From Nitrospirota bacterium (GTDB lineage Bacteria; Nitrospirota; Nitrospiria; Nitrospirales; Nitrospiraceae), in NCBI GenBank assembly GCA_030645475.1, contig JAUSMA010000032.1, positions 5,515 through 69,514 of the forward strand: a stretch of 64,000 bases of DNA, in the 5' to 3' direction. Positions 12,037 to 51,179 of this stretch are shown here, piece by piece; within the stretch, counting starts at the first letter, position 1; the number at the start of each line of letters is the position of its first letter. Under the pieces are notes generated by a model. That model saw only the letters and a list, made by a program, of their open reading frames with translations, was not told where the DNA came from and did not search any database. A program made the position numbers and the translations under genes.

Positions 12037-12043
12037 CCATGGC

Positions 12044-12820: not shown

Positions 12821-12851
12821 CACCACCTCATTCCACTGATGCGTTGAACGA

Positions 12852-17654: not shown

Positions 17655-17691
17655 ATACATATCATTCATGACCGGAATAATAGGAATTGAC

Positions 17692-18741: not shown

Positions 18742-18774
18742 CAGTCTCACACAAGATCGATCAGGACCATCATC

Positions 18775-18957
18775 ATGGGAAGCACAGAACGATCAGATCG
18801 GCAGGACCCTCAGGCAATCGAGCAGGCCATTCGCCTCGCCCTGAGAGGCCTTCGCTTTGGGTCCATCGAGATCATCGTGCATGACTCCAAAGTCGTGCAG
18901 ATCGAGCGCAAGGAAAAGATGCGCCTTGAGGGCGAAGGCCCAACCGCCACACGCTGA
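18775..18957 (+). CDS. DUF2292 (YezD-like) small protein
   Basis: The 60-aa ORF contains GSIEIIVHDSKVVQIERKEKMRL, which is the YezD/DUF2292 core. Confidence 0.65.
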   Translation: MGSTERSDRQDPQAIEQAIRLALRGLRFGSIEIIVHDSKVVQIERKEKMRLEGEGPTATR

Positions 18958-19106
18958 GAATACGATGATACGTCAGAACTGTTGTCCCAGTTAAAGGAGA
19001 ATGACCGGCCGTCCAGATGACTGGAGGCCCAAGACCGACTTGTTCAATCGTAAAATTGAGAACTGACCGGACCACCGGAAGTTCACATGTCACGGAGGGT
19101 AGCGAC

Positions 19107-20747
19107 ATGAGAATTTCCGGTGTGTTTTTTATCACGGTTACAGCCTTTGCGCTCTTTGCAGGCCCGACACCACGAGCACAGGCCGTCGAGGAAGGCCAAC
19201 TCGTAAAGAAAGAAGGCAAGTGGGAATACTACTCCGGCGAAGACCCCGGACTGAAGTATCTCTACCTCAAAGGAATCATTACCCAAGAGGAGTACGACAA
19301 GGGCTTGAAGGTGATCGAGACGAAAGAACGTATCTCCAAGCCGAACTTCAATATCGACGTCAACAACGGATTGAACATCCGTGTCGGAGAAAAATTTTTC
19401 TTGAAGCTCCGCCTGCTCACCCAGGTGCGCTACACCCACAGTTCTTACAATTCAATCTGGGGGTCGGTCGGAGACTCAAGAAACCCTGAGATCCTCGGAG
19501 GCCAGGTCGAATATCGAGCGGTGAAAAAACAGAGCGATTCGAATCTCTTTTCGGTCCCTCGCGCTCGCCTTCAATTTCTGGGATACGCCTTTGATCCAGA
19601 CTTCCGCTACAATTTCTCCCTGGCACTCGATCAGACATCCTGGGATCAGGAAGGCGGCAGTGGCAGAGCTAGACTTCTCGATGCCTATGTCGCCTCCTGG
19701 CATATCCCCTGGGCAACGGTCCAACTCGGCCAACAACGGGTCTGGTTCAATCGAGCCCAGATCAGTTCGATCGCCACGTCCACCTTCGCGGACAATATGA
19801 TTGTCCAGCGGGCATTTTCCGCCAACCAGATCGACAGCCGCGATATTGGGATCAGCATCCTCAGCGACGAAGACCAGTACAAATTCAACTATGCGATTGG
19901 TATCTGGGGGGGAGTCGGACCGAATCTGACTCGTGAAGGCACCTCCGTCAGTCAACGAGTGCTGCCCCCCAGCGGGTCACCTGGGGCACAGCCCTCAGGA
20001 ACGACTCGGACCTACAACTATGACACCCGCACCCTGACCGGCGAGATGCTGTACACGTTTCGCGGGCTCTACAAGATTGCAGGCAATCCTGGATACGGAC
20101 AGGGAGACATCCTGAATTCTCGCACCCTGCAATCAGCCATTGCCTTCGGTTATGCCTACAATCCAGCCCAAAACTACCTGAGTGCCATTCGATCAGACAT
20201 TGTAGACCGAGGGTATCGTCAGAGTGTCACCAAAGCCATGAACGGCAGACTCCTCGCCGGGGGCATCTACGACTTCCAGACCTATGAAACGGATTTCATC
20301 GCGAAGTACCAGGGCTGGTCTCTCCAGTCTGAAGGATACTTCCGCCACCAAAGGGTGCGAAGCAGGGACAGTGGATCCACACCATTTGATTTAGCAACAA
20401 TCCCCATCGCATCGATCACCGGCCCCCCCGTTGATCTGGGGCAAGCCTGGGGCTGGTATGCCCAGGTCGGGAAATATGTCATCCCCAGGAAGCTCGAACT
20501 CGCCGTCCGCTACGGGGTAATGGATCCTTCGACCAAGCAGAAGGACGATCTGACAAAGGAGTTCGGCGCCGCCATCAACTACAGCTTCGACGGCACATAC
20601 AATAACCGGCTCGTCATCGACTACTCGAATATCACCATGGGAAGCGGCGGGCGTGCACCGGATCGGTTTCCGTTTGAGAGCACACCGGGATTTGGCCGCG
20701 ATCTCATCGAAAACCGGGTCAACGTGCAGTACCAATTCTATTTCTAG
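19107..20747 (+). CDS. Outer-membrane porin (porin O/P-like), paralogue 2
   Basis: ATG at 19107 with GGAGGG upstream. Signal peptide ending in RAQA. It shares the N-terminal segment (EGKWEYY..ITQEEYDKG) and the barrel with 12852..14648. It ends in VQYQFYF. Confidence 0.75.
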   Translation: MRISGVFFITVTAFALFAGPTPRAQAVEEGQLVKKEGKWEYYSGEDPGLKYLYLKGIITQEEYDKGLKVIETKERISKPNFNIDVNNGLNIRVGEKFFLKLRLLTQVRYTHSSYNSIWGSVGDSRNPEILGGQVEYRAVKKQSDSNLFSVPRARLQFLGYAFDPDFRYNFSLALDQTSWDQEGGSGRARLLDAYVASWHIPWATVQLGQQRVWFNRAQISSIATSTFADNMIVQRAFSANQIDSRDIGISILSDEDQYKFNYAIGIWGGVGPNLTREGTSVSQRVLPPSGSPGAQPSGTTRTYNYDTRTLTGEMLYTFRGLYKIAGNPGYGQGDILNSRTLQSAIAFGYAYNPAQNYLSAIRSDIVDRGYRQSVTKAMNGRLLAGGIYDFQTYETDFIAKYQGWSLQSEGYFRHQRVRSRDSGSTPFDLATIPIASITGPPVDLGQAWGWYAQVGKYVIPRKLELAVRYGVMDPSTKQKDDLTKEFGAAINYSFDGTYNNRLVIDYSNITMGSGGRAPDRFPFESTPGFGRDLIENRVNVQYQFYF

Positions 20748-20782
20748 GACGCACGAATTATTTAACCGTCAGGAGAACAATC

Positions 20783-21598
20783 GTGAAACACCAATGGTTC
20801 AGGTCCTTACTCTTCTTCGGAATCGCGACGGCATCGCTCTGGGTCACCCCACCCGTGCAGGCACAACCGGAGCCCCTCACCGTCGCAGCCGCCAACAGCC
20901 TCAGCGATGTGTTTCGTAAAGTACTGCCGCTTTTCGAGGCCCAGCACAAAGATATCAACGTGCGGGTTATCTACGGCCCCTCGCAAACGCTCCGTAATCA
21001 GATTGAACAGGGCGCACCAGTGGACATCTTCCTGCCGTCGCTGTTTGAGGAAATTGAACAGCTCGAACAGAAAGGGCTGATCATTCAAGGAACTAAACGG
21101 GCCTATGCCGGCACGTCGCTGGTCTTGATCACCAGCACGACCCACCCCGCCCCCATCGGCTCCGTCCAAGATCTGCAGACCGTCCCGATCCGACGGATCG
21201 CCGTCGGGGATCCCAAATCCTCGTCGGTAGGGAAAGTGGCGGCGCAGTTTATCAAATATAACAAGCTCGATGCCCAACTGAAGTCTCATTACGTCTTCGG
21301 CGAGCATTCCCGTGCCGTGCTCGATCTAGTCGCCAACGGCGAAGCTGAGGTCGGCGTCCTCTATCGGACAGACGTCGTCGAGAATGCGAAGGTCCGCATT
21401 CTCGATACAGCCCAGGCCGGTTCCCATACTCCTATCCGCTATGGAGTTGCCGCGACCTGGACCGCCAAGAACCTTTCAGGCGCGGGAGACTTCATCACAT
21501 TTTTACTGACACCGGAAATACAAACCCTCTTGCAAGAGCACGGGTTCGATCGTGCAATACCACAGGCAGGGACCGCTCAAGGAAAGGAAGGACAATAA
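20783..21598 (+). CDS. ModA-like periplasmic oxyanion-binding protein, paralogue 3
   Basis: GTG start with AGGAG 7 nt upstream. Signal peptide. ModA motifs: VAAANSLSDVF, YGPSQTLRNQIEQGAPVDIFLPS, VGDPKSSSVG. Confidence 0.75.
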   Translation: MKHQWFRSLLFFGIATASLWVTPPVQAQPEPLTVAAANSLSDVFRKVLPLFEAQHKDINVRVIYGPSQTLRNQIEQGAPVDIFLPSLFEEIEQLEQKGLIIQGTKRAYAGTSLVLITSTTHPAPIGSVQDLQTVPIRRIAVGDPKSSSVGKVAAQFIKYNKLDAQLKSHYVFGEHSRAVLDLVANGEAEVGVLYRTDVVENAKVRILDTAQAGSHTPIRYGVAATWTAKNLSGAGDFITFLLTPEIQTLLQEHGFDRAIPQAGTAQGKEGQ

Positions 21599-22332
21599 TG
21601 AATCGCCTCCCAAAAACTATGCCGCAACCGTCTGCATGGCCGCTTCGAGCCCTGTTGCTCATCGCCGGAATATCCATCATTACCGGTTGCGCGAACAAGC
21701 CCGTCCCACAATCGAAATCCATCTATGAGTCGGGGCTGAGCACGGTTCGATTGGAACAGGACCCCGACTCGATTTCCAATTCTCACCCCGCCACGCTGAC
21801 CGCCACCGAAGTGGGCACATTGCTTCGAGGAGTTCGCGCATGGGAACGGCGGAACGTCATTCACCGGCTGTTTGCCGGTGAAGCTGATCGAACCAGAGCG
21901 TTCCGGAACGAAGAGATTGCCGTATTGGCGCCGCCTCTAGCAAAGGCGTTGGCCCAGGCCGCTCCGACAGAGCGTGTGTACTTCCACTTGAGTCATGCCA
22001 CCGATCAGGGGGATGAGGAAACCACCACAGGCTGGATCTCCATCCGGGGACCGATTCTGCACCTGACCATCAGCGGCGTGCACGACCGGCACAGCCCTGG
22101 TCCCGATATCAGCAAGTACGACCGGCAACTGCCGAACATTCCTGAAGCCTCGGTATTGCACGATGTCACATACGAGCCGGAGGAATTCCTGGCTAAATCG
22201 GCTTCGAAGGCACGTTTCTGGGCACCGGATCAGCGTGAAGAGTTAGAGATCCGGTATCGAGAGGCGCTTTCGGCCATGCCGATTCAGCCGGGACTGGATC
22301 CTGGACGAACATTCAAGCCGTCCCAACCTTGA
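21598..22332 (+). CDS. Lipoprotein of unknown function, paralogue 2
   Basis: TAATG overlap with the upstream stop. Lipobox ITGC. Homologous to 14724..15365 (FRNEEIAVLAPPLAKALAQAAPTERVYFHL...TTGWISI...ILHLTI). Confidence 0.7.
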   Translation: MNRLPKTMPQPSAWPLRALLLIAGISIITGCANKPVPQSKSIYESGLSTVRLEQDPDSISNSHPATLTATEVGTLLRGVRAWERRNVIHRLFAGEADRTRAFRNEEIAVLAPPLAKALAQAAPTERVYFHLSHATDQGDEETTTGWISIRGPILHLTISGVHDRHSPGPDISKYDRQLPNIPEASVLHDVTYEPEEFLAKSASKARFWAPDQREELEIRYREALSAMPIQPGLDPGRTFKPSQP

Positions 22333-22358
22333 ACGAACCAACTGCAATAAGGATGATC

Positions 22359-23327
22359 ATGAAGATACTCGTTGTGCTGTTTCTAGGAGTCTGGACGCTC
22401 ATTACCCCGCCCTCTCACGCCATCGCAGGGGACACGATCCGCGTCGGGCATTTCCCCAACATGACCCATGTCCAAGGCTTGGTGGCCCATCATCTCTCTC
22501 GCTCCGGCCGGGGATGGTTTGAACAACGGCTGGGAAGCGACGTCAAGATCGAGTGGTATGTCTACAATGCTGGACCAAGCGCCATGGAAGCGATCCTGGC
22601 GGACTCCATTGACCTTACCTACGTGGGCCCTAGTCCTGCATTGAACGCCTACGCCAAATCCAACGGCGAAGAAGTCCGGATTATCGCCGGCGCCGCCGCC
22701 GGGGGCGCAGCCCTCGTCATTCAGCAGGATTCGCCCCTCAAGCAACCAGCCGATTTCCGCGGGAAAACCATCGCCACCCCGCAACTCGGCAACACCCAGG
22801 ACATTGCCTGCCGCGCCTGGCTGGCGTCCGGAGGTTTAACGATCACCCAAACCGGCGGGGATGCGTTCATCGTTCCGACCCCGAACCCTGATCAGCTCTC
22901 GTTATTTCAACAGAAGAAACTGGACGCCGTGTGGACAGCCGAACCATGGGTCTCGCGGCTGGAGCGGGAGGCGGGCGGCAAAGTCCTCGTGGAACAATCG
23001 AAAGAGAGCATCACCGTCCTGGTCTCAAGCGTGAAATTTCTCAAGACCAAGCGTGAGCTGGCGAAGAGGTTCGCTCAAGCTCACCGGGAACTGACCGACT
23101 GGATTCTCTCGCATCCGGAAGAAGCCAAGAAGATGGTTCAGCAAGAACTGGCAGCCGAAACACAGGCCAAAGTCTCAGCCGAGTTGATCGCACACGCTTG
23201 GCCCAGGATTGGGTTGACCACGGAGGCCTCTCCTACGGAGTACCAACAATTTGTCGCACAGGCCCAACGCGCAGGTTTTATGCGAAAAACGCCTGACTTG
23301 TCGCGGCTCATTGAACGGGTGAATTGA
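22359..23327 (+). CDS. ABC transporter periplasmic substrate-binding protein (NitT/TauT, SsuA/NMT1-like)
   Basis: ATG at 22359 after AAGGA. Signal peptide ending in SHA. NMT1/SsuA-like motifs (IRVGHFPNMTH, GPSPAL). The start could also be 22329 or 22353. Confidence 0.7.
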   Translation: MKILVVLFLGVWTLITPPSHAIAGDTIRVGHFPNMTHVQGLVAHHLSRSGRGWFEQRLGSDVKIEWYVYNAGPSAMEAILADSIDLTYVGPSPALNAYAKSNGEEVRIIAGAAAGGAALVIQQDSPLKQPADFRGKTIATPQLGNTQDIACRAWLASGGLTITQTGGDAFIVPTPNPDQLSLFQQKKLDAVWTAEPWVSRLEREAGGKVLVEQSKESITVLVSSVKFLKTKRELAKRFAQAHRELTDWILSHPEEAKKMVQQELAAETQAKVSAELIAHAWPRIGLTTEASPTEYQQFVAQAQRAGFMRKTPDLSRLIERVN

Positions 23328-23328
23328 A

Positions 23329-24135
23329 ATGGGTATGTCCGAAACGGCCCAAACACATACCCTATCCCCCAAACTCGTCCTCGAACATGTCTCGAAGTGG
23401 TTCAAGACCAGTTCGCTGCACGTGCATGCGCTCGATGACGTGACACTCCGCATCACTGAAGGAGAGTTCGTCTGTCTCGTCGGCCCCAGCGGCTGCGGAA
23501 AATCGACCCTGCTCAATATCATCGCCGGCCTCGACCGACCCGATCAGGGGCTGGTTCAAGCCGATGGTCAGAGCATCACAGGGCCGGGGCCCCATCGTCT
23601 CGTGATGTTTCAAGAAGCCGCGCTCTTCCCCTGGCTGACGGTTCTGGGCAATGTGCTGTTCGGGTTACAGCTGAGAAACGGGCTCACCGCCGCCGCGCGA
23701 CGAGAAACCGCCGAGTATTATCTGGAACTCGTAGGCTTGAAGCGGTTCATGCATGCCAATGTGCACGAGCTATCGGGCGGCATGAAACAGCGGGTGGCCT
23801 TGGCCAGAGCGCTGGCTCCGAATCCCAGCATGCTCTTGATGGACGAACCCTTCGGCGCGCTGGATGCCCTGACGCGGGAGCAGTTGTATGGAGACATTCA
23901 ACGTATCTGGAGCCAGCATCGGAAAACGATCGTCTTCGTCACGCACAACGTGCGCGAGGCCGTCTGCTTGGGAGACCGCGTGATATTGTTCTCGCCGAAC
24001 CCTGGACGGATTCGCGAGGAATTCGCCATTCCCCTCCCTCGTCCACGCGACATCAACAGCGTGGATCTAGCCCGCTATGCGACGGAGATCACCCGCGTAT
24101 TGAAAGGCTATGTCCAGACCGAGGTGGCTGGATGA
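23329..24135 (+). CDS. ABC transporter ATP-binding protein (NitT/TauT family)
   Basis: Walker A GPSGCGKST, signature LSGGMKQRV, Walker B LLMDEP. Confidence 0.85.
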   Translation: MGMSETAQTHTLSPKLVLEHVSKWFKTSSLHVHALDDVTLRITEGEFVCLVGPSGCGKSTLLNIIAGLDRPDQGLVQADGQSITGPGPHRLVMFQEAALFPWLTVLGNVLFGLQLRNGLTAAARRETAEYYLELVGLKRFMHANVHELSGGMKQRVALARALAPNPSMLLMDEPFGALDALTREQLYGDIQRIWSQHRKTIVFVTHNVREAVCLGDRVILFSPNPGRIREEFAIPLPRPRDINSVDLARYATEITRVLKGYVQTEVAG

Positions 24136-29727: not shown

Positions 29728-32148
29728 CTACTTCTGCTGCTTGGCACGAGCAAGCGCCAGCGCCATAGCCATCGTCCCGGCCGGCTGCGGCTGGCGTTCC
29801 GAAGCATGCTGAGGTGCGGACGGACGCCGGTCACGTTGGTCGCGTACGGCTCCCGTAGAGGCCTCGGCTGGCACGCGGCTTGAAGCCGAAGCCATACCTG
29901 GCACATCGTCGAGGCGCATAGTCAAGCTGATGCGCTGGCGCTTCACGTCGACTTCCAGCACCTTCACCTTCACAATCTGGCCAGGCTTCACGATCTCATG
30001 GGGGTCTTTGATGAACTTGTTGGCCAGCGCCGATACGTGCACGAGACCGTCCTGATGCACCCCGATGTCGACGAAGGCGCCGAAGGCCGCGACGTTCGTC
30101 ACGACGCCTTCGAGGACCATGCCGGGGTGCAGGTCGGTCAGCGACTCGATGCCCTCCTGGAATGTGGCCGTTTTAAATTCCGGGCGCGGATCGCGGCCCG
30201 GTTTTTCTAACTCGGTCAAAATGTCGCGCACCGTCGGCACCCCGAATTTCTCATCGGTAAAGTCGGCGGGAGATAATCCCTTCAGCACCGCCGGCTGACC
30301 CATCACGTCCATCATGCCTTTGCCGATGCGCGCGAGAATGCGCTCGACCACCGGATAGGCTTCCGGGTGGACCGAGGAGCGATCCAGCGGATTGTCGCCG
30401 TCATTGATGCGCAGAAAACCGGCGGCCTGCTCGAACGTCTTGTCGCCCAGACGCGGTACCTTGCGGATCGTGGTACGGTTCACAAAAGGGCCGTTCGCAT
30501 CGCGGTACTCGACGATATTCTTCGCCAGCACCTTATTCAAACCCGACACCCGCTCAAGCAACGGAGCCGAAGCCGTATTGACGTCCACACCGACAGCGTT
30601 CACGCAATCTTCGACGGTGGCATCCAGTGATCGTGCCAACGCCTTTTGGTTCACATCGTGCTGATATTGACCGACGCCGATGGCCTTGGGATCGATCTTC
30701 ACCAGCTCTGCCAGCGGGTCTTGCAGACGACGGGCAATGGAAACGGCCCCGCGCAGACTGACATCCAATTCGGGAAACTCAGCCGCGGCAAAGGCCGACG
30801 CTGAATAGACCGATGCGCCGGCTTCGCTGACTACGATCTTGGCTACTTTCTGCTCCGGCTTGTGCGCTACAACTAATTTGATGACCTCGATGGCCAGCTT
30901 GTCGGTCTCCCGACTGCCCGTACCATTGCCGATCGAAATCAGTTCGACGCCATGTTGCACAACCAGCCGTGCGAGAGTCGCCAGCGATCCCTGCCAGTCA
31001 TTGCGCGGCTGGAGCGGATACACGGTCGTGGTCTCCAGCAACTTGCCGGTCGCATCCACCACCGCCACTTTGCAACCGGTGCGGATACCGGGATCGAGGC
31101 CGAGCACGGCCTTCGGTCCCGCCGGCGCCGCCAGCAATAACTCGTGCAGATTGCGGCCAAAAATCTTGATCGCCTCGGCTTCCGCCGCTTCGCGTAATTG
31201 CACCAGCAACTCCACCGTGAGATGCAAGAGCACCTTCACACGCCAGGTCCAATCGCAGACACCCATCAGCCACTTATCCGCGCGACGGCCACGGTCTTCG
31301 ATGCCGACATGCGCCGCAATGGTGGCGATGCAGGGATGCGGCACGACCGTTTCCAATGCCTCGCCCAGGCCCAAATCAATCTTCAAGACGCCCAACGCGC
31401 GGCCCCGGAATAGCGCCAGCGCGCGATGCGATGGGATGGTGCGAATGGTCTCGGAATAGGCGTAGTAATCGCGGAACTTTTCTTCCTCCGCCATTTCCTG
31501 GCCCTTCATCACGGTGGACGTGACGACGCCCTGGTCCCAGAGGCGGGTCCGCAACTTGGCGAGCAACTCGGCGGTCTCGGCAAACCGCTCGACCAGAATG
31601 TCCCGCGCACCTTCAAGCGCAGATTTGGCGTCCGGCACGTTGATGGCTTCGACGCCCTCAGCCGCAGGCTTCACATTCAAATACTTCGCGGCCTCCAGCT
31701 CAGGATCGAGCGTCGGATCGGCAAACAGGCCATCGGCCAATGGCTCCAATCCTGCTTCGCGCGCAATCTGCGCCCGCGTGCGGCGCTTAGGCTTGTAGGG
31801 CAAATAGAGGTCTTCCAATGTTTGTTTGGTCGCAGCGGCTTCAATGGTGCCACGAAGCAGATCTGTGAGCTTCCCCTGCTCCTCGATCGAGGCCAGAATC
31901 GCGGTACGGCGCAGCTCCAATTCGCGCAGATACAGGAGCCGTTCCTCCAACGTGCGCAAATGGGTATCGTCCAGGTTGCCGGTCACCTCCTTGCGATAGC
32001 GCGCGATAAACGGCACGGTCGAACCCTCGTCGAGCAGGGCTACCGCGGCCGCCACTTGATGCGGTCCGACACCAAGTTCCTTGGCGATGAGTGGAATAAT
32101 CTTGAGCTGCGCCGCATCTGAAACTGGCTGGGTCGTTAGAGAAACCAT
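29728..32148 (-). CDS. tex: Tex-like transcription accessory protein (YqgF/RuvC-like, HhH and S1 domains)
   Basis: 806 aa. N-terminal Tex motif ([10 protein letters not shown]), central YqgF-like region, and a C-terminal S1 domain ([31 protein letters not shown]). Confidence 0.9.
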
Positions 32149-32536
32149 CTACGTCTGTGACCGATCTTTCCGAACGCGCTACCGCACCAAATGTTGGTCA
32201 CTCGGAGACAGCGCCTTCTGGTTATATATGTGTGTGCGTTGGAGATCTTGATTGGTGGAACTCGACCGCGCCTCCCGACTTCGAGACGCTGACCAAGGTA
32301 GAGGCACCATGGCCGCGGACCACCAGACAGTCACAATCAAACCTGCACGGGCATCAGTCTAGCAGGAGGCACGGCCACTGTAAAACCCATGCACCAGCTC
32401 ACGACGACACCTGCGAGAATCATGCGCATGACGCATCTCGTGGTCACGCCGCTTCGAGTGAATCCTGTCGCATTACGCCAACTCTTCCCGGTATGTTACC
32501 TGTGACAGACCAACGGATTGCACGCAGGAACTCGCC

Positions 32537-34048
32537 ATGGAACGGCTGACCGAATCTACAGACACACCATCAGCCCTGCGACAGCCCGGCACAATCCTCC
32601 TCATCTCTTGTTATGAACTCGGGCACCAACCCATCGGTATCGCTCAGCCGATGGGATTTCTCGAACAGGCCGGATTTGCGCCGACCGGGCTCGACATCGC
32701 GATTGATGACCTGGATGAAGCGGCCCTCCGGCTAGCACACTTTGTCGGCATCTCAGTGCCCATGCATACAGCGCTCCGGCTGGGCGTGCGGGTCGCCGAA
32801 TTGATCCGGACGATGAATCCCACCTGCCACATCTGTTTCTACGGGCTGTATGCCTCAATCAATACGGACTATTTGCTCCAGAAACTGGCCGACTCTGTCG
32901 TGGGGGGAGAATATGAGCTTCCTCTACGGTCACTCATCGAGACACTCGATCGGAATCAGACCATCAGCCTCCTCGAAGGAGTGAGTTCTCGACACCAAGT
33001 GGTCAGCCCCTCGCTGCAGCGTGGATATGCCTCAACGGTTCCGTACCCCATCCCAAGTCGCAGAGGGCTCCCGATGTTGGACCGGTATGCCCGGCTCGAA
33101 GAGCAGGGTGCCGAACGGCTGGTCGGATACGTCGAGGCCAGCCGCGGATGTCTCCATCGCTGTCTTCATTGCCCAATCGTGCCGGTCTATGACGGACGCT
33201 TCGTGCTCGTCCCGGAATCCGTCGTCCTGGAAGACATCAGGCGCCAGGTGCAAGCAGGCGCCACCCATATCACGTTTGGCGATCCGGATTTCTTAAACGG
33301 CCCAGGGCATTCACTGAGTATCGTTCGCGCCATGCACGGAGAGTTCCCACGCCTGACGTTCGATTTCACCGCAAAAATCGAGCATCTTTTGAAGCGCCGT
33401 GCCCTGATGCCGGACTTGCGCGCGCAGGGATGCCTGTTCGTTATCTCTGCCGTGGAATCGTTTAGCGACTCTGTGCTGAATCTCCTACAGAAGGGACATA
33501 CAGGCGCTGACGTGATTGCGGCACTCGGCATGCTGCGTGAAGTCGGCATCGCCCTTCGCCCCTCGCTCGTGGCCTTTACCCCCTGGACCAGCTTGGACGA
33601 TTACCTCTACATGTTAGACATGGTGGAAACAGAGGACCTGATCGATGCGACCGATCCGGTACAACTGAGCATTCGCCTCTTGGTTCCTCCAGGATCGGCG
33701 CTGCTCAACCAATCTGACATTCGACGGTTTCTCGGTGCGCTCGATCAGGCCGGCTTTCAATATCCCTGGACACATCCGGACGAGCGGATGGATCGGCTGC
33801 ATCAGGCGGTAAGTGGGATCGTGGAGGCCAGTGCGAAGGACGAGACAGACGCAATGCTGACCTTTGATCGCATTCGTACGGCGGCCCATGAGATGGCCGG
33901 ACGTCGAGTTGAGCCCTCGACTCGTCCAATGCCTGCCAGGCCCGATCGCCCGAAACCGCCTCGTCTCACGGAGTCCTGGTTCTGCTGCGCTGAACCAACG
34001 ACCCGACAATTCAAGCCGCTCCTGACAAAGGGGCATGGAGAGATCTAG
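32537..34048 (+). CDS. B12-binding-domain-type radical SAM protein with C-terminal CCAEP tail
   Basis: N-terminal Rossmann-like, B12-binding-type region. CX3CX2C at residues 205-212 (GCLHRCLHC, nt 33149-33172). The C-terminal tail WFCCAEPT has its Cys-Cys pair at nt 33983-33988. Confidence 0.75.
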   Translation: MERLTESTDTPSALRQPGTILLISCYELGHQPIGIAQPMGFLEQAGFAPTGLDIAIDDLDEAALRLAHFVGISVPMHTALRLGVRVAELIRTMNPTCHICFYGLYASINTDYLLQKLADSVVGGEYELPLRSLIETLDRNQTISLLEGVSSRHQVVSPSLQRGYASTVPYPIPSRRGLPMLDRYARLEEQGAERLVGYVEASRGCLHRCLHCPIVPVYDGRFVLVPESVVLEDIRRQVQAGATHITFGDPDFLNGPGHSLSIVRAMHGEFPRLTFDFTAKIEHLLKRRALMPDLRAQGCLFVISAVESFSDSVLNLLQKGHTGADVIAALGMLREVGIALRPSLVAFTPWTSLDDYLYMLDMVETEDLIDATDPVQLSIRLLVPPGSALLNQSDIRRFLGALDQAGFQYPWTHPDERMDRLHQAVSGIVEASAKDETDAMLTFDRIRTAAHEMAGRRVEPSTRPMPARPDRPKPPRLTESWFCCAEPTTRQFKPLLTKGHGEI

Positions 34049-34084
34049 AATGTTGGTGGCGTCACATCTATAGGGGGATGAATC

Positions 34085-34807
34085 GTGCAAGCTGAACTGA
34101 TGACACAAGGCACCAAGATCCAGGAACTATTGGGGTTGAAGCAACCGGCAGTGGCAATTGCGTTTCGAGACACAGTCCCGGCGGATATTCCACAGGTCAC
34201 CACCCCGGCGCCGGCAGGATGCGGCTATTGGAAGCTCGCCGCGGAAGGCCAGACCTTCTATACCGAAGCCTCGGATCACTATACCTGCCCGGTCGGTGCC
34301 CATACCCACGGGGTAGAACTCCCGCCGCAGGTCGCGACTGAGCTCAACGGACTCGTCCAGACCATGGTAGGGATGCAGTACCTCACGATGGCCGATATTC
34401 CAATGATCCCACGCCGACAGGGAGCCTTTCGCGTGGCCCTCTACGCGCCGGTGACAAAGGCAACCTTCGCCCCAGACCTGGTACTGATCCGGGGAACCGT
34501 CAGGCAACTGATGCTCCTGGCAGAGGCAGCGCAGTCCGCCGGTATCGCAGGTGGAAACGCCACCATGGGACGGCCGACCTGCGCCGTCATTCCGGAAACA
34601 CTGCAATCGGGACAGACGGCCAGCAGTTTTGGCTGCATCGGCAACCGCGTCTACACTGGGCTCGGGGATGACGAAGGCTATTATACGATCCCAGGCGCAA
34701 AACTGGCCGACGTGGTAGATAAACTGTCGATCATCGCCGAGGCGAATCGGCAGTTGGAAGCCTTTCACCGAAGCCGCGCAGGAACAGCCGCCCCTATCGC
34801 CGGCTAA
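34085..34807 (+). CDS. DUF169 (COG2043) family protein
   Basis: PVAIAF...AGCGYW...FYT...HYTCPVGAHTHG and a later CxG/GC...R motif match my memory of DUF169. GTG start at 34085; an alternative ATG is at 34100. Confidence 0.65.
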   Translation: MQAELMTQGTKIQELLGLKQPAVAIAFRDTVPADIPQVTTPAPAGCGYWKLAAEGQTFYTEASDHYTCPVGAHTHGVELPPQVATELNGLVQTMVGMQYLTMADIPMIPRRQGAFRVALYAPVTKATFAPDLVLIRGTVRQLMLLAEAAQSAGIAGGNATMGRPTCAVIPETLQSGQTASSFGCIGNRVYTGLGDDEGYYTIPGAKLADVVDKLSIIAEANRQLEAFHRSRAGTAAPIAG

Positions 34808-34816
34808 ACAGATATC

Positions 34817-36109
34817 ATGCCGAGACTGCTCTTCCTTCTGCCGGCCACGACCTACCGGGCAGAGGCATTCCTCGAAGCGGCCCGCCTGGTGCCCGTCTCA
34901 GTGACCGTGGGCATGGAGCGGGTTCCCGAAGGCTTTCCGATCGCCTCTGGCGACGTCTTGCTGCTCGACCTGTATCATCCAGAAGCAGCCACACACACCG
35001 TCGTCGAATTCGCCAGACAGCACCCGATCGATGCGGTGATCGGCGTCGACGACAGAACCGCCGTCGTTGCCGCAGTTATCGCAGAAGCCCTGGGGCTCCC
35101 CCACAATTCTATTGCCTCCGTCACTGCCACCAGCAATAAGCGCGAGATGCGGGAGCGACTATCCAGGCAGGGCATTCCCGTGCCCCACCACCGCGTCTAC
35201 CCCCTCAATGGTGATCCACGGGCGCTCGCAAAACAGGTTGACTATCCCTGCGTCCTGAAACCGTTGATCCTCTCCGCCAGTTGTGGGGTCATTCGTGCGA
35301 ACGATGAGGAAGAGTTTTGTATGGCCTTCCACCGTGTCGGCGCACTCCTCACCAACTTGGGGTGGGTTGCGCGCGACGAGCAGGCCCGTTGGATCCTCGC
35401 CGAGGATTTTGTACCTGGATGCGAAGTGGCATTGGAGGGGTTACTCACGAACGGCACATTGCAACCGTTGGCGCTCTTCGACAAACCCGACCCGCTCGAT
35501 GGCCCTTTTTTCGAAGAGACGATCTATGTGACCCCTTCGCGCCTTCCGGCTGAGATCCAGCAACAGATTTTCGACTGTGCGGCGCGAACGGCGCAGGCGT
35601 TGGGACTACGGGAAGGGCCGGTGCATGGAGAGTTTCGTGTGAATACCGACGGCGTGTGGGTTATTGAGATGGCGGCGCGGGCAATCGGTGGCCGCTGTTC
35701 CAGTATGCTGGATTTCGCCTCCGGCATGTCACTCGAAGAACTGATCATCCGTCACGCGCTGCGGATGCCGCTACCGCCTTTGACCAGACAGGAACATGCG
35801 ACGGGAGTTATGATGCTTCCTATTCCATACGGTGGCAAGCTGAGCGACGTGCGGGGACAAACTGAAGCGAGAGCCATACCAGGGATTGTCGAACTGACGA
35901 TCACCGCACAGTCTGGCGATGAACTCGTCCCGCTTCCTGAGGGAACGCGATATCTGGGATTTCTGCTGGCACGAGGCAAGACCCCGGAGGAGGTTGAGCA
36001 GTCGCTACGGAATGCACACCGCCGATTGACGGTCGTCATCTCGGCTTCACCGTTGGCGCAGAACGAGTCGCCGCCACCAACGCCGCAATCCCGAGCTATG
36101 CGTTTCTGA
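34817..36109 (+). CDS. ATP-grasp enzyme (carboxylate-amine/L-amino-acid-ligase-like)
   Basis: 430 aa. The pre-ATP-grasp domain is followed by NKREMRERL...YPCVLKP...AEDFVPGCEVALEG...GPVHGEFRV...VIEMAARAIGG. Confidence 0.75.
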   Translation: MPRLLFLLPATTYRAEAFLEAARLVPVSVTVGMERVPEGFPIASGDVLLLDLYHPEAATHTVVEFARQHPIDAVIGVDDRTAVVAAVIAEALGLPHNSIASVTATSNKREMRERLSRQGIPVPHHRVYPLNGDPRALAKQVDYPCVLKPLILSASCGVIRANDEEEFCMAFHRVGALLTNLGWVARDEQARWILAEDFVPGCEVALEGLLTNGTLQPLALFDKPDPLDGPFFEETIYVTPSRLPAEIQQQIFDCAARTAQALGLREGPVHGEFRVNTDGVWVIEMAARAIGGRCSSMLDFASGMSLEELIIRHALRMPLPPLTRQEHATGVMMLPIPYGGKLSDVRGQTEARAIPGIVELTITAQSGDELVPLPEGTRYLGFLLARGKTPEEVEQSLRNAHRRLTVVISASPLAQNESPPPTPQSRAMRF

Positions 36110-36147
36110 CGACGGCTCCGCCACCCGCCCAGGCAGCCGGTTGGTCG

Positions 36148-36582
36148 CTAGCTCGGCTTCTTCTTGGCCTCCGCGGTCGTGCTCCGCGACCATTCTTCCA
36201 GGCTCTTGCCCTGGGCCGCCACATCCGCCATGCCGGTCATATCATGCACCCATGCGCCCTGCACGAGCTCACCATCGTCAACGATGCTTTTTTTGATGGC
36301 CTCGAACTCTTTGTCAAACCGTTCGGGAGCTTGCTCAAGGATGCGCCGGATCTTCCACTTCGTCACGGGTTTGCCGTCCGCATCCAAATCACACCCGTAA
36401 TGGACGAGATCCACCTTGCCGGTCTCAAGCATCTTGGCCAACATGCGATAGGTCACGCCTGAGCTGGATTGAACCAGCGCGGCCTTATAGAGACGCTCGC
36501 ATTTGGTCGGATCCACTTCTAACGATGTCAGATCTTCGATCACCTTGGCTGCAACATCAGGGGCTGTCTCGACTTCTCCCAT
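36148..36582 (-). CDS. Hypothetical protein (144 aa)
   Basis: ATG at 36582 with a strong GGAGGAG 7 nt upstream. The protein is acidic and globular-looking. I recognise no family. Confidence 0.55.
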   Translation of the reverse strand: MGEVETAPDVAAKVIEDLTSLEVDPTKCERLYKAALVQSSSGVTYRMLAKMLETGKVDLVHYGCDLDADGKPVTKWKIRRILEQAPERFDKEFEAIKKSIVDDGELVQGAWVHDMTGMADVAAQGKSLEEWSRSTTAEAKKKPS

Positions 36583-36729
36583 TGTAGTTCTCCTCCGTAC
36601 AGGGGTTGAGCCTCGTGGCCAATCACACCCGTGACCCTAGCAGACTCCTCTTGAACAGAGCAAGGCAACCGCAGGCGACGGCCTACGATCGGTCAGCAGG
36701 CTAGAACGCATACGCCGTTCAGCAACCAT

Positions 36730-37866
36730 TCATTCCCGGAAGATCGGACAGAGGCTCTGAGACATCCCGCTCCACCGGGTGGAGCACCTCTTGAACGCAA
36801 GCGCCCGCCGCTCAATGAGGTGCCAAGACAGGACCGCGAGTGAGAGGGTGATGCAGGCGGAGATGAGGAACAACAGCAAAACCGAAACTCCAGGAATCAA
36901 GACTACAACCGACTGCTGAACGGGAAAGGCATAGATATAGACGCCATAGGAATAGTCGCCGACACGATTGTAGGTCCTGACAGGTCCGGCAGGAATGTAG
37001 GCCAGATACAACACCGAATAGGCAATGGTCAGCAGATAGACGACAAAGAATAGGCGGGGGCCGACCAAAGCCGATGCCAGCAGTCCAATCGCACAGAAAC
37101 AGAAACACCCATGAGAAAGCGCGATCCGTTCTTTCAGAAGAAAGCAGGCGGCACCGGAGAAAAACATAAAGAACAGTGAGACGAATTGGTCGGCGGGAAG
37201 ACCCTCGATGTGGCGCACGAGCACGAACAGCCCTGCCGCAAGGGTCGCGGACACAATCGCTGTTGAAAATGCTCTGTCGCCGATGTTCTGAATTCGCCGA
37301 CAGACCAGCCAGACCACCAGGACGATGGCATACATGCGGATCTCATAGGGCAGAGACCACAGAGACCCATTGACGGCGCTTTTGAACGGGTTGTCCATAA
37401 AGACTCCCGGCAGGTTGTACCAGACACCGCTGACGAGGGTGGCGCATTTTAACAAGTACCCATAGGTCCCAGCATCCGTGAGATAGGCGGAGAGAGGCCA
37501 TGAGGTCAAGAAGGGACCGAGCCCGAACACGGTCAGGAGCAACATGACCAGCAGAGCCGGAAAGACTCTCAAGAATCTGGCCCAGAGAAATTCGCGCGCA
37601 TTCTGCCTCGTCAATAGGCTGCCCGTGACGAGAAAGCCGCTCGTCACGAAAAACACGTCAACCGCAATCGTGCCCATGGTCATGCCAAGACTGTCTCGGA
37701 ACGGCTCGGCAGCCCCAGTCCCGATCGCCAAGGCAAAACTGTGGGTAACCAGCACGGCAAACGCCGCCACGATACGAAGCAGGTTGAAATTATTGTCACG
37801 GCCTTGCGAATAGTTAGACAATGTCACCGGATAGAGCCTCACACCTGTACGATATCCTGCCAGCAT
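36730..37866 (-). CDS. Acyltransferase family 3 (integral-membrane O-acyltransferase)
   Basis: About 10 TM helices. N-terminal NFNLLRIVAAFAVLVTHSF motif typical of the Acyl_transf_3 family. Confidence 0.8.
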   Translation of the reverse strand: MLAGYRTGVRLYPVTLSNYSQGRDNNFNLLRIVAAFAVLVTHSFALAIGTGAAEPFRDSLGMTMGTIAVDVFFVTSGFLVTGSLLTRQNAREFLWARFLRVFPALLVMLLLTVFGLGPFLTSWPLSAYLTDAGTYGYLLKCATLVSGVWYNLPGVFMDNPFKSAVNGSLWSLPYEIRMYAIVLVVWLVCRRIQNIGDRAFSTAIVSATLAAGLFVLVRHIEGLPADQFVSLFFMFFSGAACFLLKERIALSHGCFCFCAIGLLASALVGPRLFFVVYLLTIAYSVLYLAYIPAGPVRTYNRVGDYSYGVYIYAFPVQQSVVVLIPGVSVLLLFLISACITLSLAVLSWHLIERRALAFKRCSTRWSGMSQSLCPIFRE

Positions 37867-45032: not shown

Positions 45033-46319
45033 CTACCGTGAGAACTCAGCATCCATCCATGCGATACGATCCCTCAACCAATCTTTCATGTAGGCTACTT
45101 CACCGGCATACGTACCCGGCGCTATGGGACTAGGCCATACAAAAATCCTCAGAATATCCCAGGTCTCAAAATTCCTCTCCTGCACTTTACTCAAATAGAG
45201 TGATTGACGATCGATATAGGTGAACACGTCATTAAGCTGTCCCGTGGCTTTAAGTTGCGCCCATTTCACCTTGACCTGCGCCTCAAAGGCCGGATCTTGA
45301 AACATCCGATCGAACCATGGGGCTCCCCGAATGCGCCAACCATTTGTCTCTGCGCCACGGCCCTCGGCATTTCCAATGGCAATATCAAAATCCCACACCG
45401 GGCCAAAGGTCAACTTACCATCACGCTTTTTATATAAAAATGTACTGCGACGAAGATCTCCGTCAACATTCTTGACCAGTTCATTAATCAAGTAATAGTT
45501 GATCGCCGAGTCCACGTCGAGATAGGCCGCATACCCTACGACAGGATCGGAAAAATCTGCAGAAAAGATTGCGTCCTCAGTCTGTGCAATATACGTCTCA
45601 ATGTAGGCGCGCTTATCTTCCCAGCCAGCCTCGAGAAGCTTCTCCGGATTCTTCAGGCAAAACGTCATCCCAGACCTTGACGAGTCAAAGCAAAACGCTT
45701 CACCCCGCGTTGCATCAACCTCAATCAAATAACCACCTGTAATGAGATTGGCAGCCGTATCCCCGGCTTTCAGTTCCGGAATATTGACCCGATCAGGAGC
45801 GATCCGGACATGTTCAGTCAACTGATACACACCTAGGTAGACCCCATTTACTTCCACATCCACGAATTTCGACCTCGGAGTGTACTCCATCCTCACTGAG
45901 CGGCTGAGTTGAAAGGTGATATCGTTTCGAAACAGTGTCTTATCCACATAGTTAGCCAGCAACACCCAATGCCTGTTCGCAGGCATTCCGAGTAAAGAGC
46001 TGCTCGTGGCTAACTTAATGTGATACGGTTTTTTAGGCAGACCCCAGGTAAAGTTGCCACGACCTTTTATCTCCATGGCTCCCGAAAGCAGTACCTGACC
46101 ATGCTCATCTCTCAAGATATAGCTGCCTGGCAGATACACCTCTTTGGACGTGACATCGGCACCACTGTCTGTCGAGAGTCTCAGCAGAGGAAGCGCCTGA
46201 GCCACTTCACCAGCCGTAGCTTTCTGCGACGTGCTCGCACTTGTCCCATCGCCACCCGAGCCACATCCGGCGAGCAAAGCAACCATCAGCATCGCCCAAT
46301 AGGCACCCATACGACTCAT
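45033..46319 (-). CDS. CotH-family (atypical kinase fold) lipoprotein
   Basis: Lipobox LLAGC. KKPYHIKL, NRHWVLLANYVDKTLFRN, YLGVYQLTEHV, VWDFDIA and a C-terminal YMKDWLRDRIAWMD resemble CotH. The gene is visibly lower in GC than its flanks. Confidence 0.65.
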   Translation of the reverse strand: MSRMGAYWAMLMVALLAGCGSGGDGTSASTSQKATAGEVAQALPLLRLSTDSGADVTSKEVYLPGSYILRDEHGQVLLSGAMEIKGRGNFTWGLPKKPYHIKLATSSSLLGMPANRHWVLLANYVDKTLFRNDITFQLSRSVRMEYTPRSKFVDVEVNGVYLGVYQLTEHVRIAPDRVNIPELKAGDTAANLITGGYLIEVDATRGEAFCFDSSRSGMTFCLKNPEKLLEAGWEDKRAYIETYIAQTEDAIFSADFSDPVVGYAAYLDVDSAINYYLINELVKNVDGDLRRSTFLYKKRDGKLTFGPVWDFDIAIGNAEGRGAETNGWRIRGAPWFDRMFQDPAFEAQVKVKWAQLKATGQLNDVFTYIDRQSLYLSKVQERNFETWDILRIFVWPSPIAPGTYAGEVAYMKDWLRDRIAWMDAEFSR

Positions 46320-49296: not shown

Positions 49297-50748
49297 TTAC
49301 CCCTTTATATTGCCAATCGGTCTTAATTCCGCCACCTTTTTTGTGATTCCCGCCCGATCGACCGACTCCACCACTTCAGAGATGTCTTTGTAGGCCAAGC
49401 CTGCCTCCTCCGCGAGGCCCGACATCGACACAGCCTTGACCAGGATGCCGCGCTGTTGCATCTGTTCCTGCAACTCCCTGCCGCGGACCGTTCGCTTCGC
49501 TTGCGCGCGGGACATGGTTCTTCCGGCTCCATGCATCGTCGAGCCGAACGTATCGCGCACCGCATGGTCCGTCCCCACGAGCAGATAGGAACCGGTCTCC
49601 ATCGATCCCCCACAGATGACCGGCTGGCCTGTCTGCCGAAATATATCCGGCAGCTCCGGACTCCCCGGCCCGAATGCTCTGGTTGCGCCTTTTCGATGCA
49701 CCACGAGCTCCCCTTCCGGATACCGTTCGACCTTGGCGATGTTATGCGCCACGTCGTACACCAGCTCCATGCCCAGAGCCTCGGCGGACCGGCCGAAGAC
49801 CGTCGCAAAGGCTTCGCGAATCTGATGCGTGATGACCTGGCGGTTGGCAAACGCCGTATTTGCAGCACAGTTCATCGCGGAAAAATACTCCTGCCCCTCG
49901 GGAGACCGAAACGGCGCGCAGGCCAGCTGTTGATCCTTCACCGTGATGCCATACCGGCGCATGGACTTTTCAAATACCTTCAGATAGTCGCTCGCCACCT
50001 GATGTCCGAACCCGCGTGACCCACAATGCACCATCACCACGATCTGCTCGTGGCCGGTAATCCCAAGCGCCGCAGCCGTGACCGGATCGAATATCCGATC
50101 GTTCGAGACCACCTGAACTTCGAGGTAATGATTGCCCGACCCCAAGGTTCCCAGCTGATTGATGCCTCGTTGAAGGGCATGGTCGGTCACGACCGACGCA
50201 TCGACCCCCTCGATGCAGCCACCTTCTTCCATACGGATGAGATCCCGATGCCACCCATATCCCCGCTCCACACACCACTTGGCCCCATGGGTCATCACGC
50301 GACCGAACTCCTCCCGCGAAAGCCGAACGAATCCACTCGCCCCGACGCCGGCTGGTACTTTCCTGAAGAGTTCGGTCATAAGCCTCTCGAGATGCGGCTG
50401 CACATCCGCCAACGTTAAGTCTGTTCGAATCAGCCGCATGCCGCAGTTGATATCGTAGCCCACACCGCCTGGAGAGATGATGCCCTCTTGCGCATCGAAC
50501 GCCGCAACACCCCCGATCGGGAATCCATAGCCCCAATGCCCATCCGGCATACAGAGCGCATACCGTCTGATGCCGGGCAGACAAGCGACATTGGTCACCT
50601 GATCGAACACCCCGGAATCCATAGATTGCAGAATATTCCTGGTGGCATAAATCCTGGCAGGCACCAACATGCCGGACTTTTCAGACATGGGGATTTCCCA
50701 AATCTCGTCCGTGATCCGATTCACCTTCATCTCGGTGTTCAATTTCAT
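49297..50748 (-). CDS. rtcB: RNA-splicing ligase RtcB
   Basis: ATG at 50748 (MKLNTEMKVNRI...) forms an ATGA overlap with the archease stop. RtcB motifs GYDINCGMRL, GSGNHYLEVQ, HCGSRGFGHQ and DVAHNIA are present. At 483 aa it is the typical size. Confidence 0.9.
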   Translation of the reverse strand: MKLNTEMKVNRITDEIWEIPMSEKSGMLVPARIYATRNILQSMDSGVFDQVTNVACLPGIRRYALCMPDGHWGYGFPIGGVAAFDAQEGIISPGGVGYDINCGMRLIRTDLTLADVQPHLERLMTELFRKVPAGVGASGFVRLSREEFGRVMTHGAKWCVERGYGWHRDLIRMEEGGCIEGVDASVVTDHALQRGINQLGTLGSGNHYLEVQVVSNDRIFDPVTAAALGITGHEQIVVMVHCGSRGFGHQVASDYLKVFEKSMRRYGITVKDQQLACAPFRSPEGQEYFSAMNCAANTAFANRQVITHQIREAFATVFGRSAEALGMELVYDVAHNIAKVERYPEGELVVHRKGATRAFGPGSPELPDIFRQTGQPVICGGSMETGSYLLVGTDHAVRDTFGSTMHGAGRTMSRAQAKRTVRGRELQEQMQQRGILVKAVSMSGLAEEAGLAYKDISEVVESVDRAGITKKVAELRPIGNIKG

Positions 50749-51179
50749 ACGTCCAACACCACCAGAGCCTTCCAATGCCCCGCGTCCTGACTCACATGGT
50801 ACAGATGTTTCGTGATCCCCTTCACATCGGCATGGAGCTCTTGTGTCCGGTAATCCACCGGCGCGCCGATCAACCGTGCTCGCAACAACCAGAGGTCTCC
50901 CGCCTGAGCCAACGTGAGCGGGGCCTCTCGGAAGACCACCCCTGCGGCATCTTTCCAATAGACAATCTCCGACAACCAATCGAACAACAGAGCCGAGAGG
51001 TCCAGATCGGTCCGTTCAATAGACCGCTCCCATCCGCCCGACACGGTAACAGGGTTTGCCAGGCTTTGAAGGAGAGCCTCTGTTGCACCGCGAAAGACCT
51101 CCTCAACCGACGACGCGTCGACTTCGAAGGCGGCATCGGCCAGGGCAATGTTTTCACGCCAGCGAATGGTCCAGGCCAT
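50745..51179 (-). CDS. Archease (RtcB activator)
   Basis: ATG at 51179. 144 aa. The N-terminus (ADAAFEV) and C-terminus (VKGITKHLYHV...VVLDV) are typical of archease. Confidence 0.75.
   Translation of the reverse strand: MAWTIRWRENIALADAAFEVDASSVEEVFRGATEALLQSLANPVTVSGGWERSIERTDLDLSALLFDWLSEIVYWKDAAGVVFREAPLTLAQAGDLWLLRARLIGAPVDYRTQELHADVKGITKHLYHVSQDAGHWKALVVLDV

Follow-up and report, generated by a model that had tools for sequence, protein, structure and literature searches.

A stretch of 64,000 nucleotides from a Nitrospirota bacterium (GenBank assembly GCA_030645475.1, contig JAUSMA010000032.1, positions 5,515 to 69,514 of the forward strand; "the window" below always means this whole stretch) was found to carry three consecutive same-strand genes. 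Their products are a radical S-adenosylmethionine (SAM) protein with a CCAEP tail, a DUF169 protein and an ATP-grasp enzyme of the L-amino-acid ligase (LAL) type. An earlier reading, made from the sequence alone, had picked out these genes as an uncharacterized cassette, and this central claim was borne out. All of its gene coordinates checked out as well, including the intergenic gaps of 36 and 9 nt (Table 1). The three open reading frames (ORFs) are real genes rather than chance ORFs, given their family-model scores and the hundreds of homologues of the same length found for each. Its sequence places the radical SAM protein in the NF040546 family, as a Cys form, and makes it a paralogue of ArsL, an enzyme of arsinothricin biosynthesis.

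Table 1 Positions of the cassette genes and their motifs, and of selected neighbouring genes at related loci.
Feature	Located in	Positions	Strand	Remarks
CCAEP-tail radical SAM protein, 503 aa, ATG start	window	32537..34048	+	NF040546, 672 bits
CX3CX2C [4Fe-4S]/SAM motif, C205/C209/C212	window	33149..33172	+	CLHRCLHC; invariant in a 41-sequence cross-phylum alignment
Tail motif PRLTESWFCCAEPT, residues 475-488	window	33959..34000	+	Behind a variable Pro/Arg-rich linker
DUF169 protein, 240 aa, GTG start	window	34085..34807	+	PF02596, 93.8 bits; GGGGGA Shine-Dalgarno
LAL-type ATP-grasp enzyme, 430 aa, ATG start	window	34817..36109	+	ATP-grasp_4, LAL_C2, ATPgrasp_N
Conserved upstream DNA element	window	32470..32508	+	About 30-65 nt 5' of the radical SAM start codon
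Fe-S carrier (example)	L051	9448-9729
Fe-S carrier (example)	L008	9541-10152
Fe-S carrier (example)	L056	7675-8004
Fe-S carrier (example)	L031	9587-10373
Formyltransferase-like gene	L028	6563-7507	-
Formyltransferase-like gene	L037
Formyltransferase-like gene	L041
Formyltransferase-like gene	L056

Family and fold of the radical SAM protein

The radical SAM protein matched NF040546, the NCBIfam model for CUAEP/CCAEP-tail radical SAM (seleno)proteins, with 672.1 bits against a cutoff of 500, residues 20-493 aligning to positions 1-467 of the 468 in the model. A family of this description had been named in the sequence-only reading; it exists, and the window protein belongs to it. The cluster motif was likewise found where that reading had placed it, at residues 205-212. 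NCBIfam already has a name for the family, and to that extent the cassette is no new category. No function was assigned to NF040546 in the literature found, and the description of the cassette as uncharacterized stands. The sole mention found was a preprint by Haft, in which the family is uncharacterized and its CU motifs are taken to suggest interaction with heavy metals (10.1101/2022.07.06.499078).

The nearest relative outside the family was ArsL. Against the ArsL model NF040542 the protein scored 324.3 bits, below the cutoff of 450 (a genuine ArsL scores 655.6), and pairwise comparison with a genuine ArsL gave 32% identity over 424 colinear residues from the N-terminus (E 8e-82), with the divergence confined to the C-terminal linker and tail. 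The two families cross-match each other's models at 250-345 bits. All other radical SAM models gave 45 bits or less, including those of all cobalamin-dependent methyltransferase families, whose cutoffs are 250-750; the best methyltransferase-family score was that of TIGR04014 (45.2 bits, cutoff 360).

ArsL has been studied from Burkholderia and Pseudomonas and possesses a canonical CX3CX2C cluster. It splits SAM unconventionally, by methylthioadenosine (MTA) and 3-amino-3-carboxypropyl (ACP) chemistry and not to 5'-deoxyadenosine, and transfers the ACP group to arsenite held on its tail (bioRxiv 10.1101/2024.02.01.577332; 10.64898/2026.04.29.721666). The arsenite is bound by the cysteines of an RCCLKC motif; loss or mutation of the tail abolishes product formation or arsenic binding while SAM cleavage persists, and the enzyme was reconstituted without cobalamin (10.1101/2024.02.01.577332; 10.64898/2026.04.29.721666). 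In vitro, the product remains bound to thiols until it is oxidized (10.1101/2024.02.01.577332). Arsenic also came along with PaArsL on purification.

The structure of the window protein was predicted with AlphaFold2 (predicted local distance difference test, pLDDT, 80) as an N-terminal Rossmann-like domain followed by a radical SAM barrel. The best folds returned by Foldseek were TsrM, AprD4, OxsB, MgmA, CysS, TokK and MiaB, with template modelling (TM) scores of 0.5-0.66, and a sequence search of the Protein Data Bank (PDB) gave no ArsL structure, just weak matches to MgmA and OxsB. The N-terminal domain matched the B12-binding family PF02310 marginally, at 31.5 bits for a gathering score of 32.1. 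Together with a fold that resembles class-B radical SAM enzymes, this makes the wording "B12-binding-like" in the sequence-only reading an apt one.

The C-terminal tail and selenocysteine

The tail reads WFCCAEPT at residues 481-488, and its Cys-Cys pair is encoded by TGC TGC at nt 33983-33988, in agreement with what had been read from the sequence. Closest homologues were sought with each of the three proteins, and the best 120 matches were all Nitrospira-like. The motif PRLTE.WFCCAEPT was invariant in 116 of the 120 closest homologues of the radical SAM protein, the remaining four being truncated or partial, and the tail is kept across phyla as well. Among cluster representatives at 50% identity, 491 matched with E <1e-30; many of these end in ...EPWFC because gene callers stopped at a TGA codon. 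A scan of one genome per species yielded at least 592 species with a relative, and the best 80 loci were fetched. Among the groups represented are Nitrospirota, Rokubacteria/Methylomirabilota, Acidobacteriota, Planctomycetota, Gemmatimonadota, Chloroflexota, Poribacteria, Nitrospinota and SAR324.

At 77 loci the tail could be read, in the same register throughout, and the pair's second codon was TGA at 59, TGC at 13 and TGT at five, with the conserved AEPT.GQ resuming in frame beyond the TGA. A hairpin with an AGUUN loop lies 16-34 nt downstream of the TGA and resembles a selenocysteine insertion sequence (SECIS). When its pairing was scored on 35 diverse loci, 83% of cells were paired against 66% in shuffles, and none of 500 shuffles reached the observed figure; compensatory double changes were seen in six of the seven pairs, and slid registers fell to 29-58%. 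The Cys forms, the window's among them, lack such a hairpin. The frequency of TGA and the covarying hairpin together indicate that the family is mainly one of selenoproteins, with selenocysteine (Sec) second in the pair. The interchange of Cys and Sec that had been supposed in the sequence-only reading is thus upheld, but not its placement at the first Cys: the exchanged position corresponds to residue 484 of the window protein (TGC at nt 33986-33988). The window carries one of several independent Cys replacements.

When 41 sequences from different phyla were aligned, no cysteines were invariant except the three cluster ligands and C483. Residue 484 was always Cys or Sec, with repeated switches between the two. 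Such invariance beside such switching is typical of a functional ligand or nucleophile. In the predicted structure the linker and tail had pLDDT values of 53-71, consistent with a flexible, mobile arm. A role for the tail Cys/Sec as an axial cobalt ligand, as in HgcA, was considered and dropped, since the CU motif of HgcA lies in an N-terminal PCUGP extension and not in the cap helix.

A Sec form was also seen on the megaplasmid of Thermomicrobium roseum DSM 5159 (NC_011961, 8953-10431), where the gene reads PRLTESWFC-TGA-AEP and the public annotation ends at the TGA. Its neighbours are a divergent class I/II aminotransferase gene and a convergent gene for a major facilitator superfamily (MFS) transporter. 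T. roseum is a cultured aerobic thermophile and a possible experimental organism.

Partner proteins and gene neighbourhoods

The DUF169 protein matched PF02596 over positions 1-208 of the 209 in the model (gathering score 27), and no NCBIfam model matched it. Four cysteines (C46, C68, C166 and C184) are conserved across phyla, as are DH65 and TH75. Its predicted structure (AlphaFold2, pLDDT 83) had no significant match in the PDB (best E 0.05, TM 0.2), and a sequence search of solved structures found nothing. In the literature DUF169 turned up in incidental mentions alone: in Nitrospina beside HgcA-like genes, in Desulfovibrio beside a TauE-like permease, and in archaea near SepRS. A direct link between the DUF169 and radical SAM proteins is supported by a natural fusion, a 757-aa protein from JGI data (P0051; 153 member sequences), confined to one lineage, in which the radical SAM stop codon is replaced by CAG and a 17-residue linker leads into DUF169.

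The third protein scored 104 bits for ATP-grasp_4, 65.5 for LAL_C2 and 40.7 for ATPgrasp_N, and its best solved relatives were BL00235 (PDB 3vot, 118.6 bits) and BacD (62.8 bits). The domain architecture and the 3vot match agree with the sequence-only assignment to the LAL type. The protein lies far below all equivalog cutoffs (60.8 against 850 for the BacD model, 35.9 against 840 for DdaF).

Gene neighbourhoods were compared over 82 loci (L001-L081 and the window), in which ORFs were called and searched with the window proteins and the neighbours were clustered; a well-flanked subset of 43 loci had 4 kb or more to either side. ATP-grasp orthologues (350-750 bits) lay within 6 kb of the radical SAM gene at 34 of the 82 loci and 21 of the 43, and flank it in at least five phyla (Nitrospirota, Rokubacteria, Acidobacteriota, Planctomycetota and Chloroflexota). 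DUF169 was present at 16 loci (11 of the well-flanked), namely in the Nitrospira lineage, in several Planctomycetota and, at a distance, in Poribacteria. The exact order radical SAM-DUF169-ATP-grasp is a trait of the Nitrospira lineage that was also met with the Sec form in one planctomycetotal locus (L017). The whole trio is syntenic in the Nitrospira lineage and otherwise at just a few loci of Planctomycetota and Nitrospirota; the pair that is conserved more broadly is that of the radical SAM and ATP-grasp genes. At loci without ATP-grasp the neighbours were unrelated housekeeping genes, and no alternative partner emerged. Pairwise identities of the radical SAM and ATP-grasp proteins were correlated (r = 0.83), which was given little weight because it is expected of any co-inherited genes.

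The commonest neighbours, exceeding ATP-grasp, were iron-sulfur (Fe-S) carriers, which were encoded within 2.5 kb of the radical SAM gene at 43 of the 82 loci and nearly always on the same strand: NifU-C/Nfu at 20 loci, IscA at seven, IscU at one and YggX at 18. In Rokubacteria the order is radical SAM-Nfu-ATP-grasp, so that Nfu fills the slot of DUF169 in Nitrospira; a few loci carry both. The frequency of these carriers might point to sulfur or selenium chemistry, or may simply reflect a fragile cluster in aerobes. At 15 Chloroflexota loci a formyltransferase-like gene, with Formyl_trans_N only, stands divergently beside the YggX-radical SAM pair; its enzyme might act on the product's amino group, or the arrangement may be no more than local synteny.

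Within Nitrospira the cassette is conserved throughout, at 64-98% identity in hundreds of sequences, and the closest named homologues were, with one exception, from Nitrospira or Nitrospiraceae. The ATP-grasp enzyme of the window shows 100% identity to a protein of a Nitrospirota metagenome-assembled genome at NCBI. Such strong conservation suggests a physiological rather than an accessory role. One locus labelled "uncultured Enterobacteriaceae" (L004, CAZCWX010000254.1) has a trio 79% identical to the Nitrospira one, and the contig is probably mis-binned. In one Nitrospiraceae locus (L001, 7405-8001) a gene for a 198-aa SAM-dependent methyltransferase overlaps the start of the radical SAM gene, an arrangement that recalls the pairing of ArsL with ArsM and was not seen at the other Nitrospira loci.

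Arsenic genes were searched for with proteins from arsenic islands of Bacillaceae as queries. No homologue of Acr3, ArsC, ArsD, ArsN1, MIP or CobW was found in the 82 loci, and an ArsB-like permease occurred in just three or four Chloroflexi loci. The islands themselves (L083, Bacillus cereus plasmid pAH820_272, 1136-13212; L084, Priestia filamentosa plasmid pBEH3, 3427-13729) hold a radical SAM gene with the RCCLKC motif together with ArsR, Acr3/ArsB, ArsC, ArsD, ArsA, an MIP channel, a CobW GTPase and ArsN1, the arsinothricin-resistance acetyltransferase. About 3 kb from the radical SAM gene they also carry a unit of a CMD-family gene, an LAL-type ATP-grasp gene (ATP-grasp_4 and LAL_C2) and ArsR. 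No ArsM was visible within 6-7 kb in either island. The island ligase is only 24% identical to that of the window and is thus not its orthologue. The recurrence of a radical SAM-ligase pairing in both sister families is what would be expected if the radical SAM product were an amino acid, and the islands' gene content suggests an undescribed arsinothricin-related dipeptide pathway.

In the window, the trio looks like a self-contained operon because the genes around it are unrelated: Tex (divergent), PNPOx-like and YaaH-like genes and a two-component system upstream, and a 144-aa ORF, an acyltransferase, a DnaJ-domain protein, TrmL and tetratricopeptide repeat (TPR) proteins downstream. The conserved upstream element, with the consensus CATT[GA]CGCC..CTCT...GGT.TG.TAC..GTGAC, is common to the window and three Nitrospira-lineage loci (L003, L004 and L063) and is probably a promoter or operator. 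An Rfam scan of positions 32000-36800 found no riboswitch and no family matching this element, and promoter and terminator scans gave nothing informative. A His/Cys-rich ORF of 130 aa that overlaps the element (32157-32549) was rejected as a metal-binding or precursor protein, the protein not being conserved. The 144-aa ORF (36148-36582, minus strand, no Pfam match) is convergent with the ATP-grasp gene and recurs at the same position in all seven trio-carrying Nitrospira-lineage loci; it may belong to the cassette as a fourth component or simply reflect the synteny of the lineage.

Farther away, and with no evident link to the cassette from which they are separated by more than 8 kb, lie oxyanion-transport genes (9944-24135) for three ModA-like binding proteins, a ModC-like ABC ATPase with a TOBE domain, a PBP_like regulator with a helix-turn-helix (HTH) domain, a phosphate-selective-type porin and an NMT1-like binding protein with a second ABC ATPase. 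This cluster probably serves molybdate or tungstate uptake. Other genes of the window encode a CotH kinase-like protein (45033-46319), an RtcB RNA ligase (49297-50979), a YhdP/AsmA-like protein of 1120 aa (53419-56781) and a 1245-aa glycosyltransferase fused to a dimethylformamidase-beta-like C-terminal domain (59216-62953).

Proposed function and comparison with known systems

The reading preferred here, with a probability of roughly 40%, is that the cassette may be a sister system to arsinothricin biosynthesis that works on another acceptor, with ArsL-like alkylation of a soft atom held by the tail being followed by dipeptide ligation. In more general terms, the cassette probably makes a compound derived from an amino acid. 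By homology, the radical SAM protein would work like ArsL and make an ACP species from SAM. The two vicinal cysteines of the flexible WFC-C/U-AEP arm (Cys and Sec in most species) would bind a soft atom as acceptor, which the arm would deliver to the cluster, as is suggested by the role of the ArsL tail, the invariance of the motif and the interchange of Sec and Cys. A carbon-heteroatom bond would then be formed at the cluster, giving a 2-amino-4-(X)-butanoate amino acid, and the LAL-type ATP-grasp enzyme would use ATP to condense this with another amino acid into a dipeptide-like product. The ligation step is proposed from the enzyme's family, the synteny across phyla and the Bacillaceae parallel. 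In the weakest step of the scheme, DUF169 would be a Cys-rich accessory that may load the arm or release a thiol-bound product from it. The Fe-S cluster may be its client instead, given that Nfu has the same place in other phyla. An Atg22-like MFS transporter adjacent at six loci (Blastocatellia) was counted in favour of the scheme. No arsenic, mercury or selenium handling genes were found nearby, and arsenic in particular is not favoured as the acceptor by the gene context.

Several observations weigh against the ArsL-like scheme. At 32% identity the regiochemistry of SAM cleavage is not readable from sequence, so that the ArsL-like cleavage is putative, and the tail motif differs from that of ArsL in having two rather than three soft ligands. 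About half of the well-flanked loci have no ATP-grasp gene nearby and three quarters have no DUF169. The commonest neighbours, the Fe-S carriers, are explained only loosely by an ArsL-like model. Genes for handling arsenic, mercury or selenium, arsM and arsQ included, were absent from the 64-kb window, and none was seen near the 82 loci apart from the few ArsB-like permeases. Finally, as a conserved core feature of Nitrospira the cassette looks more like a housekeeping system than an antibiotic-like one.

A broader version of the same chemistry is a tentative possibility, and a good deal less probable. Here NF040546 as a whole would be a second, much wider noncanonical radical SAM family, in which the carbon of ACP from SAM is bonded to a chalcogen or a metalloid on a Cys-Sec arm and the product feeds a dedicated ligase. 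Carriers like Nfu, IscA or DUF169 might supply sulfur or selenium as the acceptor, or a trace metalloid might take that part, with DUF169 loading or unloading the arm. The outcome would be an undescribed heteroatom amino acid or dipeptide, for instance an organometalloid or a new thiol or selenol of low molecular weight, made by nitrite oxidizers and many soil and marine phyla. DUF169 would then gain its first function.

The tail pair can be read differently, as a redox arm that passes electrons or a hydrogen atom through a selenenylsulfide or disulfide, with DUF169 or Nfu supplying electrons or clusters. A vicinal Cys-Sec pair near the C-terminus behind a flexible linker, an interchange of Sec and Cys that is typical of redox selenoproteins, the Fe-S proteins as commonest neighbours and the analogous GCUG tail of mammalian thioredoxin reductase are all in keeping with such a role. 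No thioredoxin-like or reductase partner recurs among the loci, however, and the homologous tail of ArsL binds substrate and is dispensable for SAM cleavage. With ArsL as precedent, a substrate-holding arm fits the homology better than a redox-active pair, and the redox arm seems unlikely. Much the same may be said of a canonical class-B enzyme, the reading originally offered, in which a 5'-deoxyadenosyl radical and cobalamin would methylate or otherwise modify a small molecule, for example the ATP-grasp product. This would account for the near-threshold B12-binding match, for the cobalamin enzymes TsrM, OxsB, MgmA, TokK and CysS among the best folds and for the weak matches to B12-dependent methyltransferase models; those matches do not exceed 45 bits against cutoffs of at least 250, which disfavours the methyl transfer that had been thought possible. 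AprD4, also among the best folds, is not known to need cobalamin, and the Rfam scan found no cobalamin riboswitch. The only close characterized relative, ArsL, shares the domain layout and was reconstituted without added cobalamin or formation of 5'-deoxyadenosine.

A plain arsenic pathway appears less probable again. The radical SAM protein would in that case be isofunctional with ArsL and lead to hydroxyarsinothricin or arsinothricin, its two-ligand tail binding methylarsenite and the ligase making a dipeptide. Vicinal Cys pairs are the classic binding sites of trivalent organoarsenicals, as in ArsI and the MAs(III)-selective ArsR, ArsL is the nearest relative, the Bacillaceae islands of ArsL type combine an LAL-type ATP-grasp enzyme with ArsN1, and at one Nitrospiraceae locus a SAM methyltransferase gene overlaps the radical SAM start. 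Set against these are a score below the ArsL cutoff (324 against 450), a tail without RCCLKC whose two cysteines have no third nearby, the absence of ars genes from the window, and the lack of Acr3, ArsC, ArsD, ArsN1, MIP and CobW at the 82 loci, with ArsB-like permeases confined to the three or four Chloroflexi loci. Modification of a ribosomal precursor by the radical SAM and ATP-grasp enzymes, in the manner of ribosomally synthesized and post-translationally modified peptides (RiPPs), is the least probable of the alternatives and would be surprising. Some RiPP clusters do pair a radical SAM with an ATP-grasp enzyme, and two RiPP radical SAM models matched weakly (33 and 21 bits), but these scores are far under the cutoffs and the ATP-grasp enzyme has the architecture of a free-amino-acid ligase, LAL_C2 included. 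A precursor gene would not fit into the gaps of 36 and 9 nt between the genes, the sole ORF upstream is unconserved, and no small conserved ORF recurs among the neighbours.

The sister family of ArsL is at least as large as ArsL's own, with matches in at least 592 species in a single scan and 491 clusters at 50% identity (E <1e-30), and it is a predominantly selenoprotein family present in environmentally important groups, among them Nitrospira, Chloroflexota, Acidobacteriota and Rokubacteria. If ArsL chemistry carries over, this would point to a new carbon-heteroatom bond-forming reaction and a new class of metabolite, along with an experimental handle on DUF169, a widespread family with no assigned function. 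The Cys form in the window can be expressed without Sec machinery, so the chemistry is directly testable.

Among known systems, TsrM, OxsB, MgmA and AprD4 share the predicted overall fold of the radical SAM protein (Foldseek E 1e-17 to 1e-15, TM 0.53-0.66), but their identity to it is 15-18% and their family models give 45 bits or less. A flexible C-terminal CC or CU pair is also found in MerA, HgcB and thioredoxin reductase, as a functional analogy on unrelated folds; these arms either carry a soft metal to a buried active site or, like that of the mammalian reductase, may pass electrons on. The three-domain ATP-grasp/LAL architecture of the ligase is shared with BL00235 and with BacD/YwfE of bacilysin synthesis, its best sequence matches among solved structures, although it scores far under the BacD and DdaF equivalog cutoffs. 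In known pathways such ligases join a proteinogenic amino acid to an unusual one. The ArsL-clade proteins of the Bacillus cereus-group and Priestia islands are likewise accompanied by an LAL-type ATP-grasp enzyme in the annotated islands, which unlike the window are full of ars genes and have no DUF169.

To our knowledge, ArsL is so far the sole canonical radical SAM superfamily enzyme shown to cleave SAM at the ACP carbon. The only other known maker of an ACP radical or organometallic species from SAM on a [4Fe-4S] cluster is Dph2 of diphthamide synthesis, which differs from the window protein in having another fold, outside PF04055 and without CX3CX2C, and in taking a protein histidine carbon as acceptor. 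The window protein and ArsL have in common their domain order, core length, CX3CX2C motif and a Cys-containing C-terminal tail with a vicinal Cys pair. The ArsL motif, RCCLKC, is terminal and has three cysteines, whereas the WFC[C/U]AEP motif of NF040546, with two soft ligands, stands about 20 residues before the C-terminus after a longer linker. The partners of NF040546 are the LAL ligase, DUF169 and Fe-S carriers in place of the ArsM, ArsQ and ars neighbours of ArsL. ArsL is found in Proteobacteria and in ars islands of Bacillaceae, and NF040546 in Nitrospirota, Chloroflexota, Acidobacteriota, Rokubacteria, Planctomycetota and Gemmatimonadota. What is new relative to ArsL is thus a different tail, a mostly selenoprotein family, other partners and a far wider distribution.

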